This document shows positions 33,719 to 42,960 of a DNA stretch of 64,000 nt, piece by piece (the stretch's first letter is position 1; each line of letters begins with the position of its first letter). Both the position numbers and the translations under genes were made by a program. The DNA is taken from NCBI RefSeq assembly GCF_030028105.1, contig NC_092371.1, positions 240,344,501-240,408,500 of the forward strand. Direction: 5' to 3'. A model generated the notes under the pieces. That model did no database searches, was not told the DNA's origin, and saw nothing but the letters and a program-made list of their open reading frames with translations. The DNA comes from Mobula birostris (lineage: Eukaryota).

Positions 33719-36700
33719 GTCCAGGAACGGCCCTACACAATATGTGTGAGAGTTTTCCATACAAGGAAAAAGATTTGCGAAATGTTGAATGCAGCGCTGA
33801 ATAAGAAATTGGGGAACAAAATGTGGCCACTAGGGGGAACGTGGGATATTACCTCGTGAACAAGCAGTAAATGGGATATGGAAAGAGAACTGTGAAAAGA
33901 AGTGCAAATTGCTGATAGAGGAATGGACGGATAAGACAGATGTAAAGTGGAACAGTACATTATTAGCGAGTTGGAGGAATAATGCTTGTGACAAAGGGAT
34001 GTACGGCAGAAGGAACACCAAAAAGTCGGGAGACGCTAAAAGTGGAGTGTGAATGGGTGCCGAAAACGAGAGCAGGGAAAACGATATAAGCAAACCAAGA
34101 CCGGCCTAGATAGGAAAGAAGGGCAGGATCATCAGTCTAAAGTTCAAACTAATAGGGAAACAAGGGATCCCGAACCCATATCTGGCATACCAACCCCGTT
34201 TGAGGACCGTGACTGCGATAAGGAATGGGCACCCACCATACACCCCACCTCCCACCTTATCAGGGTCCAAGTGCACCCAGTGCTCCCGAACCCCAATCCT
34301 CCCGGTATTCAGGTATGGTGGCCGCCCAGGTAAAACAGCGGCAGCAGGGAAGGGGATGCTCTCTTTACCCTGAGATCCGGAAAAGGAATAACGAGGATTA
34401 TTCTGAGACAGGGAGGGAAGAATCCAATAAATCCCCAGAGTTAATGGCTCCACAAAGACAATTGCCCACCCGAATGCTGCCCAATCCACGAGCAGCGGAG
34501 GGGGGACAGCCCTCAGTAATTCCTGTGTATGCACCCTGGAAACCTCAAGAAATGATAATGATCATGAATCAGGCCCCAGATAGAAAAGAAGAACCAGCAC
34601 AGTTTGCTCAGTATGTTCGCAGTACTATGCAAATGTATAATGTGACCCAGCAAGATTTATTCAGTCTCTCTGCATGATTCCCTCAGTTGATGAGGGGCAG
34701 AAATGGAAGGCAGAATTAAGACATCAAACCTATCAGGAGTTACAGGCGGGAATTCATAATGAGAATGAACAGATCATTCAAGTCTTGGAGAGGGCTCTCC
34801 AACAACCTGTAAACATCACTAAAGTACATGAATGCAAACCTAATTACTTTGGTTCTGTCTTCACTAAGGAGGACATGAATAATCTTCCAGAAATAGTAGG
34901 GGACAGAGGGTCCAGTGAGATGGAGGAACTGAGCGAAATACATGTTAGTAGGGAAATGGTGTTAGGTAAATTGAAGGGATTGAAGGCAGATAAATCCCCA
35001 GGGCCAGATGGTCTGCGTCCCAGAGTGCTTAAGGAAGTAGCCCAAGAAATAGTGGATGCATTCGTGATAATTTTTCAAAACTCGTTAGATTCTGGACTAG
35101 TTCCTGAGGATTGGAGGGTGGCTAATGTAACTCCACTTTTTAAAAAAGGAGGGAGAGAGAAACCGGGGAATTATAGACCGGTTAGCCTAACGTCGGTGGT
35201 GGGGAAACTGCTGGAGTCAGTTATCAAGGATGTGATAACAGCACATTTGGAAAGCGGTGAAATGATCGGACAAAGTCAGCATGGATTTGTGAAAGGAAAA
35301 TCATGTCTGACGAATCTCATAGAATTTTTTGAGGATGTAACTAGTAGAGTGGATAGGGGAGAACCTGTGGATGTGGTATATTTGGATTTTCAGAAGGCTT
35401 TTGACAAGGTCCCACACAGGAGATTAGTGTGCAAACTTAAAGCACACGGTATTGGGGGTAAGGTATTGGTGTGGGTGGAGAGTTGTTTAGCAGACAGGAA
35501 GCAAAGAGTGGGAATAAACGGGACCTTTTCAGAATGGCAGGCGGTGACTAGTGGGGTACCGCAAGGCTCAGTGCTGGGACCCCAGTTGTTTACAATATAT
35601 ATTAATGACTTGGATGAGGGAATTAAATGCAGCATCTCCAAGTTTGCGGATGACACGAAGCTGGGGGGCAGTGTTAGCTGTGAGGAGGATGCTAAGAGGA
35701 TGCAGGGTGACTTGGATAGGTTGGGTGAGTGGGCAAATTCATGGCAGATGCAATTTAATGTGGATAAATGTGAAGTTATCCACTTTGGTGGCAAAAATAG
35801 GAAAACAGATTATTATCTGAATGGTGGCCGATTAGGAAAAGGGGAGGTGCAACAAGACCTGGGTGTCATTATACACCAGTCATTGAAAGTGGGCATGCAG
35901 GTACAGCAGGCGGTGAAAAAGGCAAATGGTATGCTGGCATTTATAGCGAGAGGATTCGAGTACAGGAGCAGGGAGGTACTACTGCAGTTGTACAAGGTCT
36001 TGGTGAGACCACACCTGGAGTATTGTGTGCAGTTTTGGTCCCCTAATCTGAGGAAAGACATCCTTGTCATAGAGGGAGTACAAAGAAGGTTCACCAGATT
36101 GATTCCTGGGTTGGCAGGACTTTCATATGAAGAAAGACTGGATGAACTGGGCTTGTACTCGTTGGAATTTAGAAGATTGAGGGGGGATCTGATTGAAACG
36201 TATAAGATCCTAAAGGGATTGGACAGGCTAGATGCAGGAAGATTGTTCCCGATGTTGGGGAAGTCCAGAACGAAGGGTCACAGTTTGAGGATAGAGGGGA
36301 AGCCTTTTAGGACCGAGATTAGGAAAAACTTCTTCACACAGAGAGTGGTGAATCTGTGGAATTCTCTGCCACAGAAAGCAGTTGAGGCCAGTTCATTGGC
36401 TATATTTAAGAGGGAGTTAGATATGGCCCTTGTGGCTATGGGGGTCAGGGGGTATGGAGGGAAGGCTGGGGCGGGATTCTGAGTTGGATGATCAGCCATG
36501 ATCATAATAAATGGCGGTGCAGGTTCAAAGGACCGAATGGCCTACTCCTGCACCTATTTTCTATGTTTCTAAGCCTGGAGAATCGGGACCTGACTATTGG
36601 GAGTGATTTGTGGCCTGCTACGACACTTTTGCAGGAGACCAAGCCTTTAATAATGGGAATCCATCCCCCCAGTTTAATGCCTTACTGCTCCAATGTTAAC

Positions 36701-36985
36701 CAAGTTAGCCAACATGATTAAAACAAATAATATGGATTAGCCTGACAATGACCAAAATCGAATGCGACGAGCTTTGACATATTAGGACCCAGTTTTCGAA
36801 TCCCGATCAACCCCTAAGGGAACTAATATTAAAGGTGAATATGTTTAGCGGGAAGTGAAGGATGCAAGCGGGCTATCTCTGGGGATCAGAAATGGGAACA
36901 AAAACCTACCAAGGGACAGGTGGGGACAACCTGTCTAGAAAGTAACAGGCAAGGACGCTTCCTGCCATGAGTACCACCCCTCAGG
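33719..36985 (+). pseudogene. gag: ERV gag (frameshifted, CR1-interrupted)
   Basis: WPLGGTWDI; LPPYQGPSAPSAP; VYAPWKPQEM...PDRKEEPAQF. An MHR-like VHECKP|KPGESGPDYWE*F is restored when the CR1 is removed. Confidence 0.8.
34844..36568 (+). mobile_element. Young 5'-truncated CR1 LINE with intact RT frame, inserted in ERV gag
   Basis: Open to the stop at 36482 with NYRPVSLTS, GVPQGSVLGP and FADD; CR1 3' tail CTATGTTTCT; CTAA at both junctions (34840-34843, 36569-36572). Confidence 0.95.
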
Positions 36986-39230
36986 AAGAGCCCAATATAA
37001 TATCATAAGTTGCTGGAATTCCAATTCCGTTTATGATTGGGATGGGGGCAACCACATCCACACTCGATCGGGAAATAGCATTGGAAAAGGGATTCCAGCT
37101 ATCAGACGCTACAATCACTCTGTCTGGGTTCGATGGTACGGAACGTACCCAGCCATTGCAGGTAGAATTCCAGGGGGACCCAGTGTGAGGTTTCATTTAC
37201 AGCCACCACCCGTCTGGGATGTAATCTAGCAGGGAGTGGCTTGCTCTGTCTGTTGGAAGTCGAGATTCTATGCACAGACAAGGGTATCACCCTGGGACTT
37301 GTGAACAACCGACGGCTTCTCCAGTTACCGACCCTTCCAGTGGTGGGCACTTAACCCGGACTCCACTTCATTTGGACCCCCTCTGCCAGTGGTCAACCCC
37401 ATGTGACCCTGTGCTATGACCCTACGGGGTGCACCACTGAGGAAAGTCAATATTATGCACTGCTCGAAGGACAGAAGTTCCCAGTCACAGTGATTGGAGA
37501 GATTAAAGGAAGAGAGGGCAGTGCATTACTGGCTGAAGTTCCGGATTTCCTTTGGCGACAGACAGGACTGCTGGTTCCCCATTCCACCATTAGGGTTTGC
37601 CCTGGGTTCAAGCCAAAGAGCCTAGGGTTTCTTGCCTACACCCTGACGAAATAAGCCTCCAGCACCAAGGGAGACTGGCAAGATTTGCCCGCAGGCCAAC
37701 TCCGATACTGGAAGGAGTCTGAGGTGAAGATGAGACATCTGGTAAGACACTCTTTTAATATTGACTGAACCCAAGACATTGTACCCCATCTCTGGGCAAT
37801 TTCAGGCCACGAAGTCGGCCGCACCAACTGCGCCCCCCCCCCCCATCCGGATCACTGTGAAAGGAGGACAGACTCTCCCATCCATTCCGCAATACCCCCT
37901 CAAGCCCGAGGCAACGTTTTATGAGGATGGAAGCTCTTTTGTGGATCCAGCAGGAAAACAATAGTGATGGACAATGAAGTAAGCCTCTTTTGAAGCAGCT
38001 GTCTCCGCCCAGAAAGCCGAGTTGTTTGCTCTGACTTGTGCCTGTACCCTAGCCACAGACAAAAGTGCCAACGTTTACACAGACTCCCGTTATGCATTTG
38101 GAATTGTACATGACTATGCGGCTCTCTGGGAACATGGGGATTCCAGACTTCCTCTGGCCACCCCATTAGTAATGCCACCTTTGTACTCACCGCTGTACAG
38201 CTACCTGTGCTCATTATTAAATGTGCGGCCCACATCCGCTTGCCCGACCAGGTCACTAAAAGCAATGTTAGCAGATTAGACAGTGAAAAGTGCGGCACAA
38301 TCCTCGGTAGTTGTAGTCCCCTCGGGTTCCAAGACTTAAGCAGAATGGGTTTGCCAGACATGCAGGAGGTACATATTTTTCAGGGGGACGCCTCTGAGGA
38401 GGAGTGCAAACTGTGGTCCCAGTTGGGGTGCCAGAAAGACCCTGACCTAGGTTTTTGGATCACCCCAGCGGGACAGGTTTGTGCTCCTACACAGTTTTTA
38501 ACCAGTATTGGTTGAGTATGTACATAATTGTACACATTTGGAAAAGGAGGGAATGGTTGGTAACCTGTATCCTGCACACCGGGTACGACTCCCTTGCCAG
38601 GTGGACCTTTTTCGTGTCTACAAGTTGAATTTATTGAATTACCTAGAGTACATTGCTATAGATACTGCTTAGTTATTATAGATGTGTTTAATAGATGGAC
38701 TGAAGCTATTCCAACTCCAATAATATTGCTATGAGTTGTGAAGGTATTATTATGGGAAACAATTCCCAGGTACGGCCTGCCAGAGACGCTGAGCTCTGTC
38801 AATGGCTCACACTTTGTGGTGAAAGTAAACTAAGGGGTATGTAACGAACTAGCTATCAAGCAACAACTCCACTGTGTACACCACCCACGGGCCGCTGGCA
38901 TAGTGGAGAAAGCCAATGGCACTCTGAAGCGTAAAGGGGAAGAGATGGGAAAATATATATATGCCAACTAACCAAAATTTTCCAAGCATTACATTCACAG
39001 GTACGACAGACTACAAGGAAGAGAGCTACCCCGCAGAGAGGAGTGACTATCCCACCATAGAACCTGGGAATTTTATCCTGGTCAAGAACTGGGATCGAGG
39101 GAAACTTAGACCTCAGTGGAGAGGACCATATCAGGTGTAACTGACCACTCCCACGGCTGTGAAACTGAAGGGGCAATCTCGGTGGATACATCGAACAGAC
39201 TGCAACCGTGTTACTGCAGGAACTGAGAAG
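36980..39230 (+). pseudogene. pol: ERV pro-pol (protease, putative 2H module, RT deleted, RNase H, integrase)
   Basis: IPFMIGMGATTSTL (mutated DTGA) and CNLAGSGLL. QYPLKPEA is joined directly to FYEDGSS. NVYTDSRYAFG; LVIIDVFNRWTEA; GIVEKANGTLK; WRGPYQV*LTTPTAVK. Confidence 0.88.
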
Positions 39231-39253
39231 AAGGACTCTTGGACTAAAGGAAA

Positions 39254-40137
39254 ATGTATTGGTTGATAGTGGTGCTTGTGCTTATGCCTTGAGAGGACTC
39301 ACCCCAGCATCCGGGGACCCCCATGACAACACCGTTCTCTCTGTCACACCTATGCCAAACAGGTAGAACCAGGGGCCTGCTGGGTTTGTTCCGAAATTCC
39401 GCAGCATGGTAAAACTATGATCCCAATGTTGGTATCCCACTCAACCAGTGAGGAATTTTCAACCTGGGCTTTCTCAAATAACACCCGGGAAAGTGAGGTG
39501 AGGAACCGTGGTCCAGTCAGAGATGACTGTGGCTGTCAGTGTTTTGAGGGATGGTATCTCAGGCCCCCACCAAACGGAACTTCCTATACTGGGAAACATG
39601 CATCCTGGCCATACTTGCAGGTGCCCAGCAGCGGAGCAGTAAATGCCACCTGTTACTTTAATTTCCAGGGAGGGGAAGATGCAAGTTTTTCTGGGAAATA
39701 GCAGCTGTACCACCGATACCACTGCAGACCCTTCCCAACCAGTAAATAGCACCCACTGGGCATGTGGAAATCGGCCCTATGTATGGCTCCCAAGGGAAAC
39801 TGCCAGCAGATGGGATCCACAAAGTCCCAGCAAAGGTTGTTGTTATTTAGTACCCTACCTGATAGTTATAACTGAGACTGAACGATTTCCAATGATCATT
39901 TTTCCCTCCTATGGAGTAGCCAGGAATTCACGAGAGATAATCAGTTTGGCAGTAGCACTTGAGGAGCTGGCCAATAAAACTGCAGTGGCCCTGACAGAAA
40001 CACAGGCCCAAGTAACAGAAATATCCTCTGAAATGATTGCAATCCAGCAAACAGTCCTACAGAACCGGATGGCCTTTGATCTCATTCTGGCAGAAAAAGG
40101 AGGAACATGCGCCTTTGGGCCCGGAGATTTATCATGA
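39254..40137 (+). pseudogene. env: ERV env, gamma-type, frameshifted and C-terminally truncated
   Basis: Hydrophobic leader MYWLIVVLV, CWVC at 39378-39389, WACGNRPY, heptad repeat and immunosuppressive domain LQNRMAFDLILAEKGGTCA. Confidence 0.88.
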
Positions 40138-40156
40138 AATGATAAAAAGGAGGGAA

Positions 40157-40720
40157 TGAGGAATTGAGGATATATTAAAAAAAATCATTTTGAATATAAG
40201 TAACCTCTAGCTAAAAGAATAATTGGGACTGAACAGGAAATTTTGAACTGAAGTAAACTCTGTCTTCAGCAGTTAGAAAAAAACCAGGTTATACGACTTT
40301 TCTCTTAATTAGCAGAGAGACATTCAGAATTGATAAGTGATATTGTACCCTCGTTTGTCTAGGGGAAGGGAGAACTCACTGATAAGGACAGGAATGAACA
40401 TCTGTCTGTAATTAAGTCAGAACCTTGAAAAGGGAATAATTGATAAGGACTGGACAGTACATCCATCTGTAATCAAACCTTGATTTAGCAGACTCTCTTA
40501 TCTAAGTAATTCAGTTTTGCACCAGCAGACTTGGTGGGCATACCAGTTCAAATAACATCTTGCAATAGTAATGTATGGGGCTTACTATGTATAAATATAT
40601 GGCTGTAACCTAACTTGACAGTCCACTTGTCAGATGATTGGCAGCACTGACATGCCTTCCCTTTGACAATTGGGTCTCAAACTCCTGCTGGAGAATGTGC
40701 AATACACTATGGTGACGATA
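40157..40720 (+). repeat. ERV 3' LTR (3' end uncertain)
   Basis: PPT AAAAAGGAGGGAA (40144-40156) followed by TG; repeated GATAAG motifs; TATAAA at 40590-40595. Confidence 0.7.
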
Positions 40721-40877
40721 AGAACGCAAACACGAGAAAATCTGCAGATGCTGGAAATTCAAGCAATACACACAAAATGCTGGTGGAAAGCAGCAGGCCT
40801 GGCCACCAGCATTTTGTGTGTGCTGCGTGTTGATGAGAAGCTGGTCTCCCGAGTTTTATTCAGATTCGACTTTAACA

Positions 40878-42900
40878 CCCGCTGCCCTCGGCTCTCCCCC
40901 CGGGCTCCCGCTGCCCTCGGCTCTCCCCCCGGGCTCCCGCTGCCCTCGGCTCTCCCCCCGGGCTCCCGCTGCCCTCGGCTCTCCCCCCGGGCTCCCGCTG
41001 CCCTCGGCTCTCTCCCCGGGCTCCCGCTGCACTCGGCTCTCTCCCCGGGCTCCCGCTGCCCTGCCCTGTCCCCGGGCTCCCGCTGCCCTCGGCTCTCCCC
41101 CCGGGCTCCCGCTGCCCTCGGCTCTCCCCCCGGGCTCCCGCTGCCCTCGGCTCTCCCCCCGGGCTCCCGCTGCCCTGCCCTGTCCCCGGGCTCCCGCTGC
41201 CCTCGGCTCTCTCCCCGGGCTCCCGCTGCACTCGGCTCTCTCCCCGGGCTCCCGCTGCCCTCGGCTCTCTCCCCGGGCTCCCGCTGCCCTCGGCTCTCTC
41301 CCCGGGCTCCCGCTGCCCTCGGCTCTCTCCCCGGGCTCCCGTTGCCTTCGGCTCTCTCCCCGGGCTCTCGCTGCCCTCCCCTGTCCCCGGGCTCCCGCTG
41401 CACTCGGCTCTCCCCCCGGGCTCCCGCTGCCCTCGGCTCTCCCCCCGGGCTCCCGCTGCACTCGGCTCTCCCCCCGGGCTCCCGCTGCCCTCGGCTCTCT
41501 CCCCGGGCTCCCGCTGCCCTCGGCTCTCTCCCCGGGCTCCCGCTGCCCTCGGCTCTCTCCCCGGGCTCCCGCTGCCCTCGGCTCTCTCCCCGGGCTCTCG
41601 CTGCCCTCCCCTGTCCCCGGGCTCCCGCTGCCCTCGGCTCTCTCCCCGGGCTCCCGCTGCACTCGGCTCTCCCCCCGGGCTCCCGCTGCCCTCGGCTCTT
41701 CCCCCGGGCTCCCGCTGCCCTCCCCTGTCCCCGGGCTCCCGCTGCCTTCGGCTCTCCCTCCGGGCTCCCGCTGCACTCGGCTCTCTCCGCGGGCTCCCGT
41801 TGCCCTCGGCTCTCCCTCCGTGCTCCCGCTGCCCTCCCCTGTCCCCGGGCTCCCGCTGCCCTCGGCTCTCTCCCCGGGCTCTCGCTACCCTCCCCTGTCC
41901 CCGGGCTCCCGCTGCCCTCGGCTCTCTCCCCGGGCTCCCGCTGCCCTCGGCTCTCCCTCCGGGCTCCCGCTGCACTCGGCTCTCCCTCCGGGCTCCCGTT
42001 GCCTTCGGCTCTCTCCCCGGGCTCCCGCTGCCCTCGGCTCTCTCCCCGGGCTCCCGTTGCCCTCGGCTCTCTCCCCGGGCTCCCGCTGCCCTCGGCTCTC
42101 CCCCCGGGCTCCCGCTGCCCTCGGCTCTCTCCCCGGGCTCCCGCTGCCCTCGGCTCTCTCCCCGGGCTCCCGCTGCCCTCCCCTGTCCCCGGGCTCCCGC
42201 TGCACTCGGCTCTCCCCCCGGGCTCCCGCTGCCCTCGGCTCTCTCTCCGGGCTCCCGCTGCCCTCGGCTCTCTCCCCGGGCTCCCGCTGCCCTCGGCTGT
42301 CCCCGAGCTCCCGCTGCCCTCGGCTCTCCCCCCGGGCTCTCGCTGCACTCGGCTCTCTCCCCGGGCTCCCGCTGCACTCGGCTCTCTCCCCGGGCTCCCG
42401 CTGCACTCGGCTCTCTCCCCGGGCTCCCGTTGCCCTCGGCTCTCTCCCCGGGCTCCCGCTGCCCTCGGCTCTCTCCCCGGGCTCCCGCTGCCCTCGGCTC
42501 TCTCCCCGGGCTCCCGCTGCCCTCGGCTCTCTCCCCGGGCTCCCGCTGCCCTCGGCTCTCTCCCCGGGCTCCCGCTGCCCTCGGCTCTCTCCCCGGGCTC
42601 CCGCTGCCCTCGGCTCTCTCCCCGGGCTCCCGCTGCCCTCGGCTCTCTCCCCGGGCTCCCGCTGCCCTCGGCTCTCTCCCCGGGCTCCCGCTGCCCTCGG
42701 CTCTCTCCCCGGGCTCCCGCTGCCCTCGGCTCTCTCCCCGGGCTCCCGCTGCCCTCGGCTCTCTCCCCGGGCTCCCGCTGCACTCGGCTCTCTCCCCGGG
42801 CTCCCGCTGCCCTCGGCTCTCTCCCCGGGCTCCCGCTGCCCTCCCCTGTCCCCGAGCTCCCGCTGCCCTCCCCTGTCCCCGAGCTCCCGCTGCCCTCGGC
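40878..42900. repeat. GC-rich minisatellite, 29-bp unit, ~70 copies
   Basis: Consensus CGGGCTCCCGCTGCCCTCGGCTCTCTCCC; the 29-aa periodicity of the spurious ORFs equals 3 x 29 nt. Confidence 0.98.
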
Positions 42901-42960
42901 GCCCCTCAGCCACCCACCCTCCCGCTGCCCCTGAGGTATTTTCGCCCCCGGCCCACTCAC

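Follow-up and report, generated by a model that had tools for sequence, protein, structure and literature searches.

Structure of the provirus in the window

The analysed window, a stretch of 64,000 nucleotides from Mobula birostris, contains a decayed provirus on the + strand, the parts of which were mapped by tblastn using intact relatives as queries (Table 1). The order of the remnants is gag (split by a LINE), protease, an additional segment, RT N-terminus, RNase H, integrase and env. From this gag-pro-pol-env order and the presence of a retroviral RNase H, an integrase and a TM-type env, we infer that the element is a class I (epsilon-like) ERV, a label given because of matches to the Pol of walleye epidermal hyperplasia virus 1 (WEHV1) and to Pol proteins labelled as gammaretroviral. 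At the catalytic triad site, the protease remnant has no DTG reading. Past position 37913, the RT core and the tether (about residues 312-750 of the relative P0008) are absent. The integrases nearest to the window copy are those of a shark element (P0027, 56%) and a skate element (P0008, 49%).

Table 1. Remnants of the provirus, the retrotransposon inside its gag region and the motifs of the Pol domain (window positions)
Feature	Position	Strand	Remarks
gag remnant, 5' of LINE	34456..34668	+	41-44% to skate and catshark gene models containing gag
Non-LTR retrotransposon (LINE) inside gag	34850..36570	+	RVT_1, E 1e-33; boundaries approximate; presumably CR1-like
gag remnant, 3' of LINE	36571..36845	+	gag similarity picks up again at 36571 (tblastn)
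Protease remnant, retroviral	37024..~37310	+	frame break near 37170-37181; 47% to P0012 residues 7-59 (tblastn)
Defective Pol domain, predicted to be a CNPase-like 2H phosphoesterase	37338..37760	+	ends approximate; homology to intact Pol relatives
First HxT motif, PHVTL	37400..37417	+	His 37400, Thr 37406; aromatic at +5 is Tyr 37415 (CNPase Phe235 column)
Second HxT motif, PHSTI	37580..37627	+	His 37580, Thr 37586; conserved Gly at +15 is 37625
RT N-terminal remnant	~37770..37913	+	tblastn with intact relatives
RNase H remnant, frame breaks	37914..38300	+	PF00075, E 1.6e-7
Integrase remnant, stops	38400..39233	+	PF00665, E 2.9e-7
env remnant	39327..40137	+	PF00429, E 0.0012, below curated cut-off

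For the detection of an LTR pair, blastn was run inside the 64-kb window, and no 5' partner of 40131-40720 was found. Where the 3' LTR is expected, an imperfect 36-bp direct repeat (81%) is present at 40380-40415 and 40441-40476. Just 3' of the provirus, a GC-rich tandem array with 29/27-bp units (40820-42950) has open frames of 700-800 codons on both strands and is probably a minisatellite. The LINE in gag lies in provirus orientation, and it is likely younger than the provirus because about 550 codons of its RT region are still open.

The original prediction had drawn attention to two in-frame HxT/S motifs in the additional segment. Both were confirmed: His 37400 and His 37580 lie in one frame, 60 codons apart, within a stretch free of stops (37355-37654). 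In the six frames of the window, this is the only pair of such motifs; in block-shuffled windows (n = 200), the mean was 0.375 pairs and 29.5% had at least one. By itself, the motif pair is not beyond chance. The segment is counted as a real domain because of its homology to intact Pol relatives and not because of the motif pair. In the motif frame, stops occur at 37352, 37652 and 37766, the last being just past the domain, and a stretch resembling the first strand of the domain (37338) lies in a frame other than that of the motifs, with a match that is weak alone (E 0.035). Due to these frame breaks and stops, the window copy is unable to encode a working enzyme. With its domain broken, most of RT deleted and a LINE in gag, this copy is dead.

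Contigs matching the window region 36560-39300 were present in public sequencing runs of related organisms (1189 and 1312 contigs in two runs), mostly 90-95% alike, covering all 30 bins and having many differing internal deletions. The provirus family is multi-copy and decayed in these organisms. Among 40 listed of 371 differences in the related copies, none affects a His or Thr codon of the two motifs.

Relatives and conservation of the domain

With the window segment as query, no Pfam family was matched, phmmer against PDB sequences gave three weak and unrelated matches only, a word-index homologue search among longer proteins yielded 199 candidates with none of them significant, and a viral_contigs search did not find relatives. 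A phmmer search against 1.84 billion proteins resulted in eight matches, of which six are retroviral Pol pieces or whole Pol proteins with a similarly placed segment (E 5e-19 to 2e-7). The two others, P0002 and P0006, were rejected as relatives, being repeat-driven matches to unrelated repeat proteins. Mobula hypostoma, Leucoraja erinacea and Amblyraja radiata are among the carriers known by name. To the intact relative P0012, the window segment shows 46% identity over 111 aa (E 7e-29), and the skate protein P0008 has an open frame comprising protease, domain, RT, RNase H and integrase. The skate Pol XP_055501356.1 is an example of an element with an intact domain, located at about residues 126-260. 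Using residues 122-262 of P0008, a region search returned two skate proteins only.

To survey Pol proteins, the best 120 of 777 relatives of P0008 were taken. Among these, the spacer between protease and RT has a bimodal length distribution, with about 29-85 aa in one mode and 144-257 aa in the other; relatives having the segment range from 164 to 257 aa, and those lacking it from about 29 to 85 aa. A domain profile identified 25 carriers in this set (both motifs in 14, a degenerate domain of full length in 9 and a truncated one in 2), while the domain was scored absent in 82 proteins and 13 were not scorable. A source name is available for 12 carriers, and in every case it is that of a fish, although one of them, P0057, is labelled Oreochromis niloticus in one source and ferret in another; none of the tetrapod-named Pol proteins among the best 120 of 777 has the domain. 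An extra segment between the protease end and the RT start, as originally described, thus occurs similarly placed in skate, ray and teleost Pol proteins. The profile also matches the window (E 1.2e-28), which is partly circular since the profile includes the window segment among its rows. In an RT tree (FastTree, 120 matches plus 3), carriers are found in several clades, but the backbone is poorly supported (0.04-0.9).

Three further Pol proteins were noted in the survey. P0132 was scored absent, yet shows a weak partial match, and its gene model may be truncated. P0064 (about residues 80-270) and P0097 (Bombina, about residues 85-225) have spacers of 195 and 144 aa without a match to the domain profile; these spacers are either other inserts or very decayed domain copies.

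The domain alignment consists of 22 rows drawn from the carriers (fewer than all 25), with the window segment included. Both HxT/S motifs are kept in 16 of the 20 rows spanning both positions, with a spacing of 59-63 residues. The short spacing, originally regarded as a weakness of the 2H assignment, is therefore typical of the family. Of 20 rows, 18 have an aromatic residue at His1+5, i.e. in the column of Phe235 of CNPase. By residue count, 19 of 22 rows have Gly at His2+15, which corresponds to the offset from His309 to Gly324 in CNPase; in the structure model of a relative, the helix following the strand of the second motif begins at the position of Gly 37625. Between distant elements, conservation amounts to 27-49% for the domain, 33-42% for the protease and 47-62% for RT, so that the domain is similar to the protease in this respect and below RT. 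The retention of both motifs and of the +5 aromatic residue at a domain identity of about 27-49% suggests that the active site is under selection in most lineages.

In P0022, P0023, P0026, P0030, P0037, P0036, P0043, P0044 and P0050, the whole domain is located in a long open Pol frame and one or both motifs are lost. In the surveyed set (the best 120 of 777 relatives), 9 of 23 full-length domains are without one or both motifs, and these cluster in two RT clades. Catalysis therefore appears to be dispensable in some lineages, and the sequences suggest that motif-less domains in open Pol frames are retained pseudo-enzymes.

Predicted fold and precedents in fish retroviruses

For fold prediction, the domain of P0012 (the relative 46% identical to the window segment) was modelled using AlphaFold and the 22-row alignment, in which the window segment is row 2. 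The model (pLDDT 93, pTM 0.85) has a strand beginning at each His and a helix at 100-112 following the strand 88-93, i.e. past the second motif. With an E limit of 0.001, Foldseek against the PDB gave 50 matches (lowest E 1.6e-5), and among the matches listed all are CNPase, goldfish RICH or the fungal RNA kinase entry 6u05. In VIA-align against 48,161 chains, mouse CNPase ranked first (Z 14.5, rmsd 3.2, 144 of 144 residues aligned, ~15% identity), and the next best match had a Z of 7.7. Other matches were plant CPDase (7.2), rotavirus VP3 (7.0 and 6.8), Acb1 (6.9), MHV NS2 (6.2), penguinpox cGAMP PDE (5.5) and AKAP18 (5.3); all top 15 rows are 2H proteins. The window's own 98-aa stretch, modelled by single-sequence AlphaFold, reached a pLDDT of 52 and had no 2H match in Foldseek or VIA-align. 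The proposed 2H phosphoesterase is supported by AlphaFold and Foldseek through the intact relative and the family alignment, together with the conserved motifs and reports on fish retroviruses.

None of the Pfam 2H families passed its cut-off in any alignment row (best E 0.021-0.044): three of the 22 rows matched PF02834 (lowest E 0.044), and one row each matched PF13563 and PF08302 (E about 0.02). The sequence-profile match to human CNPase is weak (E 1.6), as is a match to an RNA-ligase family of PHROGs in 3 of 22 rows (E 0.19), and ESM Atlas clusters provide leads toward the fungal tRNA-ligase CPD family PF08302. In CNPase, the base is sandwiched between Phe235 and Val321, and the helix alpha7 after the second motif strand, for which the model helix at 100-112 is a candidate counterpart, is said to be unique to CNPases; these features and the chemistry of CNPase are taken from PMC4643303, which also reports that CNPase rescues yeast deficient in the CPD activity of tRNA ligase. 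At the position equivalent to Val321, by residue count and without superposition, Val is present in none of the 22 rows, and base binding would therefore differ from that of CNPase. From the P0012 model, the domain is predicted to be a compact CNPase-type 2H fold, nearer to CNPase than to other 2H clades.

According to passages citing them, Mazumder et al. 2002 described 2H domains in retroviruses of fish, walleye dermal sarcoma virus among them (cited in PMC9503650), and CNPase is sometimes encoded by the epsilon-like elements found in ray-finned fish (Basta et al. 2009, cited in PMC4977317). These two studies may already describe the position of the domain between protease and RT. A literature search covering few subscription papers found no functional test of the domain and no report for cartilaginous fish, and a term search of Han 2015 on shark ERVs (PMC4422223) gave no occurrence of CNPase, phosphodiesterase or phosphoesterase. 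The CNPase/2H domain in fish retroviruses is already published; new are the cartilaginous-fish branch and the catalytically degenerate copies in open Pol frames.

The best viral structure matches (BFVD) were the Env polyproteins of WEHV1 (Q9WHI8, E 2.3e-8) and walleye dermal sarcoma virus (A4GTG3, E 5.4e-7), both with a TM of about 0.7. The Pol of WEHV1 (P0069) has a short spacer between protease and RT and the domain is absent from it. As judged from predicted structures, one fold occupies two genomic positions (Pol and Env) in fish retroviruses. At BFVD ranks 4-10 and in Atlas clusters, small viral proteins and giant-virus RNA ligases with a compact CNPase-type fold were observed. Phage and fungal tRNA-ligase CPD domains likewise resemble the viral domain. 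Because of the likeness to giant-virus, phage and fungal CPD proteins, the donor need not be vertebrate CNP.

Possible functions and comparison with known systems

We consider it reasonably probable that the window holds a broken copy of a compact two-His Pol domain of class I (epsilon-like) fish retroviruses, the intact versions of which are CNPase-like, likely hydrolyse 2',3'-cyclic phosphates to 2'-phosphates and are probably packaged into virions. Catalysis would take place by apposed His/Thr pairs as in CNPase. Because of its place between protease and RT, the domain would be synthesized within Gag-Pol and packaged alongside RT, in line with retroviral biology; from the same position, release by the protease can be envisaged. 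Candidate substrates are 2',3'-cyclic-phosphate ends on tRNA or viral RNA generated by metal-independent host RNases, or free 2',3'-cNMPs, and removal of the cyclic phosphates might lead to tidier RNA ends or to a blunted RNA-damage signal. By analogy to CNPase, resolving cyclic-phosphate RNA ends or removing 2',3'-cNMPs is probably the job of the domain.

Reverse-transcribed DNA is a ligand of cGAS, and cGAS-STING is present in fish. A cyclic-dinucleotide phosphodiesterase degrading 2'3'-cGAMP could counter this sensing of reverse transcripts; Acb1 and penguinpox cGAMP PDE have the same fold, and a virion-delivered enzyme would sit at the site of reverse transcription. However, the Z scores of these two proteins (6.9 and 5.5) are no better than those of generic 2H matches and far below that of CNPase, and cGAMP cleavage is not general to 2H enzymes, as NS2, NS4b, VP3 and AKAP7 do not degrade cGAMP according to PMC8406329, so that we regard a cGAMP-degrading enzyme as unlikely.

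The selected function could also lie outside catalysis, which would then be incidental: the domain might bind RNA or nucleotides, act as a spacer or in assembly within Gag-Pol, or serve as a decoy of host CNP. This would fit the 9 motif-deficient domains, clustered in two RT clades, among the 23 of full length in long open Pol frames, and host CNP is listed as a binder of HIV-1 matrix and an inhibitor of particle formation in PMC7471995. A non-catalytic function is nevertheless improbable in view of the 16 of 20 rows that keep both motifs and the +5 aromatic at the low domain identity given above.

Of the accessory nucleotide-processing or immune-antagonist enzyme originally envisaged, the 2H enzyme-type domain held up, but the analogy to NS2, VP3 and AKAP7 is disfavoured (Z 14.5 for CNPase versus 5.3-7.0), and the window copy is defective. 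A 2',5'-phosphoesterase degrading 2-5A and thereby blocking RNase L, as coronavirus NS2, rotavirus VP3 and AKAP7 do, would belong to the same 2H superfamily, as reflected by the matches to VP3 (Z 7.0/6.8), MHV NS2 (6.2) and AKAP18 (5.3); the Z score of CNPase is about double. The elephant shark is listed with an OAS protein in PMC6307210, so that cartilaginous fish could make 2-5A. In teleosts, OAS is reported lost (PMC6961538 and PMC2852836), yet both motifs are kept in six teleost-labelled Pol proteins (P0053, P0056, P0057, P0058, P0070 and P0076). For this reason, and because the fold is nearer to CNPase, a role against 2-5A and RNase L is quite unlikely; a term search of the preprint by Goldstein and Elde, which deals with the capture of such enzymes by viruses, gave no occurrence of 'retrovir'. 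A chance motif pair in decayed spacer sequence, which would agree with the frequency of such pairs in shuffled windows and the missing Pfam match of the window segment, is refuted by the phmmer relatives, the identity to P0012, the conserved motifs and the confident 2H fold of this relative (AlphaFold, VIA-align), leaving it a negligible probability.

Retroviral Pol normally contains protease, RT/RNase H and integrase, and sometimes a dUTPase. Extending the preferred reading of a CNPase-like domain, it is conceivable, if doubtful, that retroviruses across skates, rays and teleosts package a CNPase-type fourth Pol enzyme against an innate defence that relies on 2',3'-cyclic phosphates or cGAMP, with the domain having been put in Pol and Env and repeatedly been made a catalytically dead decoy. 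If true, this would be a retroviral enzyme that destroys nucleotide signals and mirrors the restriction factor CNP on the viral side. A CNPase-type domain keeping its motifs in elements of cartilaginous and bony fish implies an enzymatic need that is absent from the mammalian gammaretrovirus-like Pol proteins of the same search. The natural substrate of CNPase itself is debated. A natural viral version of about 140 aa and natural motif-less variants would offer a cheap biochemical test for questions on the CNPase substrate and on HIV-1 restriction.

Compared with CNPase (mouse 2xmi, human 1woj) and goldfish RICH (2i3e), the viral domain is alike in the 2H fold throughout the domain, the two HxT motifs, the aromatic residue in the Phe235 column, the helix past the second motif and the Gly at His+15. 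It differs in length (about 135-145 aa versus about 210 aa in CNPase/RICH), in His-His spacing (59-63 versus 79 residues in CNPase) and in being embedded in Pol, whereas the catalytic domain of CNPase sits elsewhere, namely behind the CNPase N-terminal domain. MHV NS2, the C-terminal domain of rotavirus VP3 (VP3-CTD), AKAP7, Acb1 and the poxvirus PDE, the substrates of which are 2-5A or cGAMP, have the 2H fold and motifs in common with it but match far less well than CNPase (Z 5.3-7.0). In WEHV1 and walleye dermal sarcoma virus, the domain is part of Env and not of Pol as in the window element. Also among the closest known systems are the teleost epsilon-like retroviruses with CNPase domains: teleost Pol proteins were found to contain a homologous domain, likewise between protease and RT. 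Unlike the window element, which groups with skate, ray and shark elements, the teleost versions have an extra segment of 25-30 aa before the first motif.
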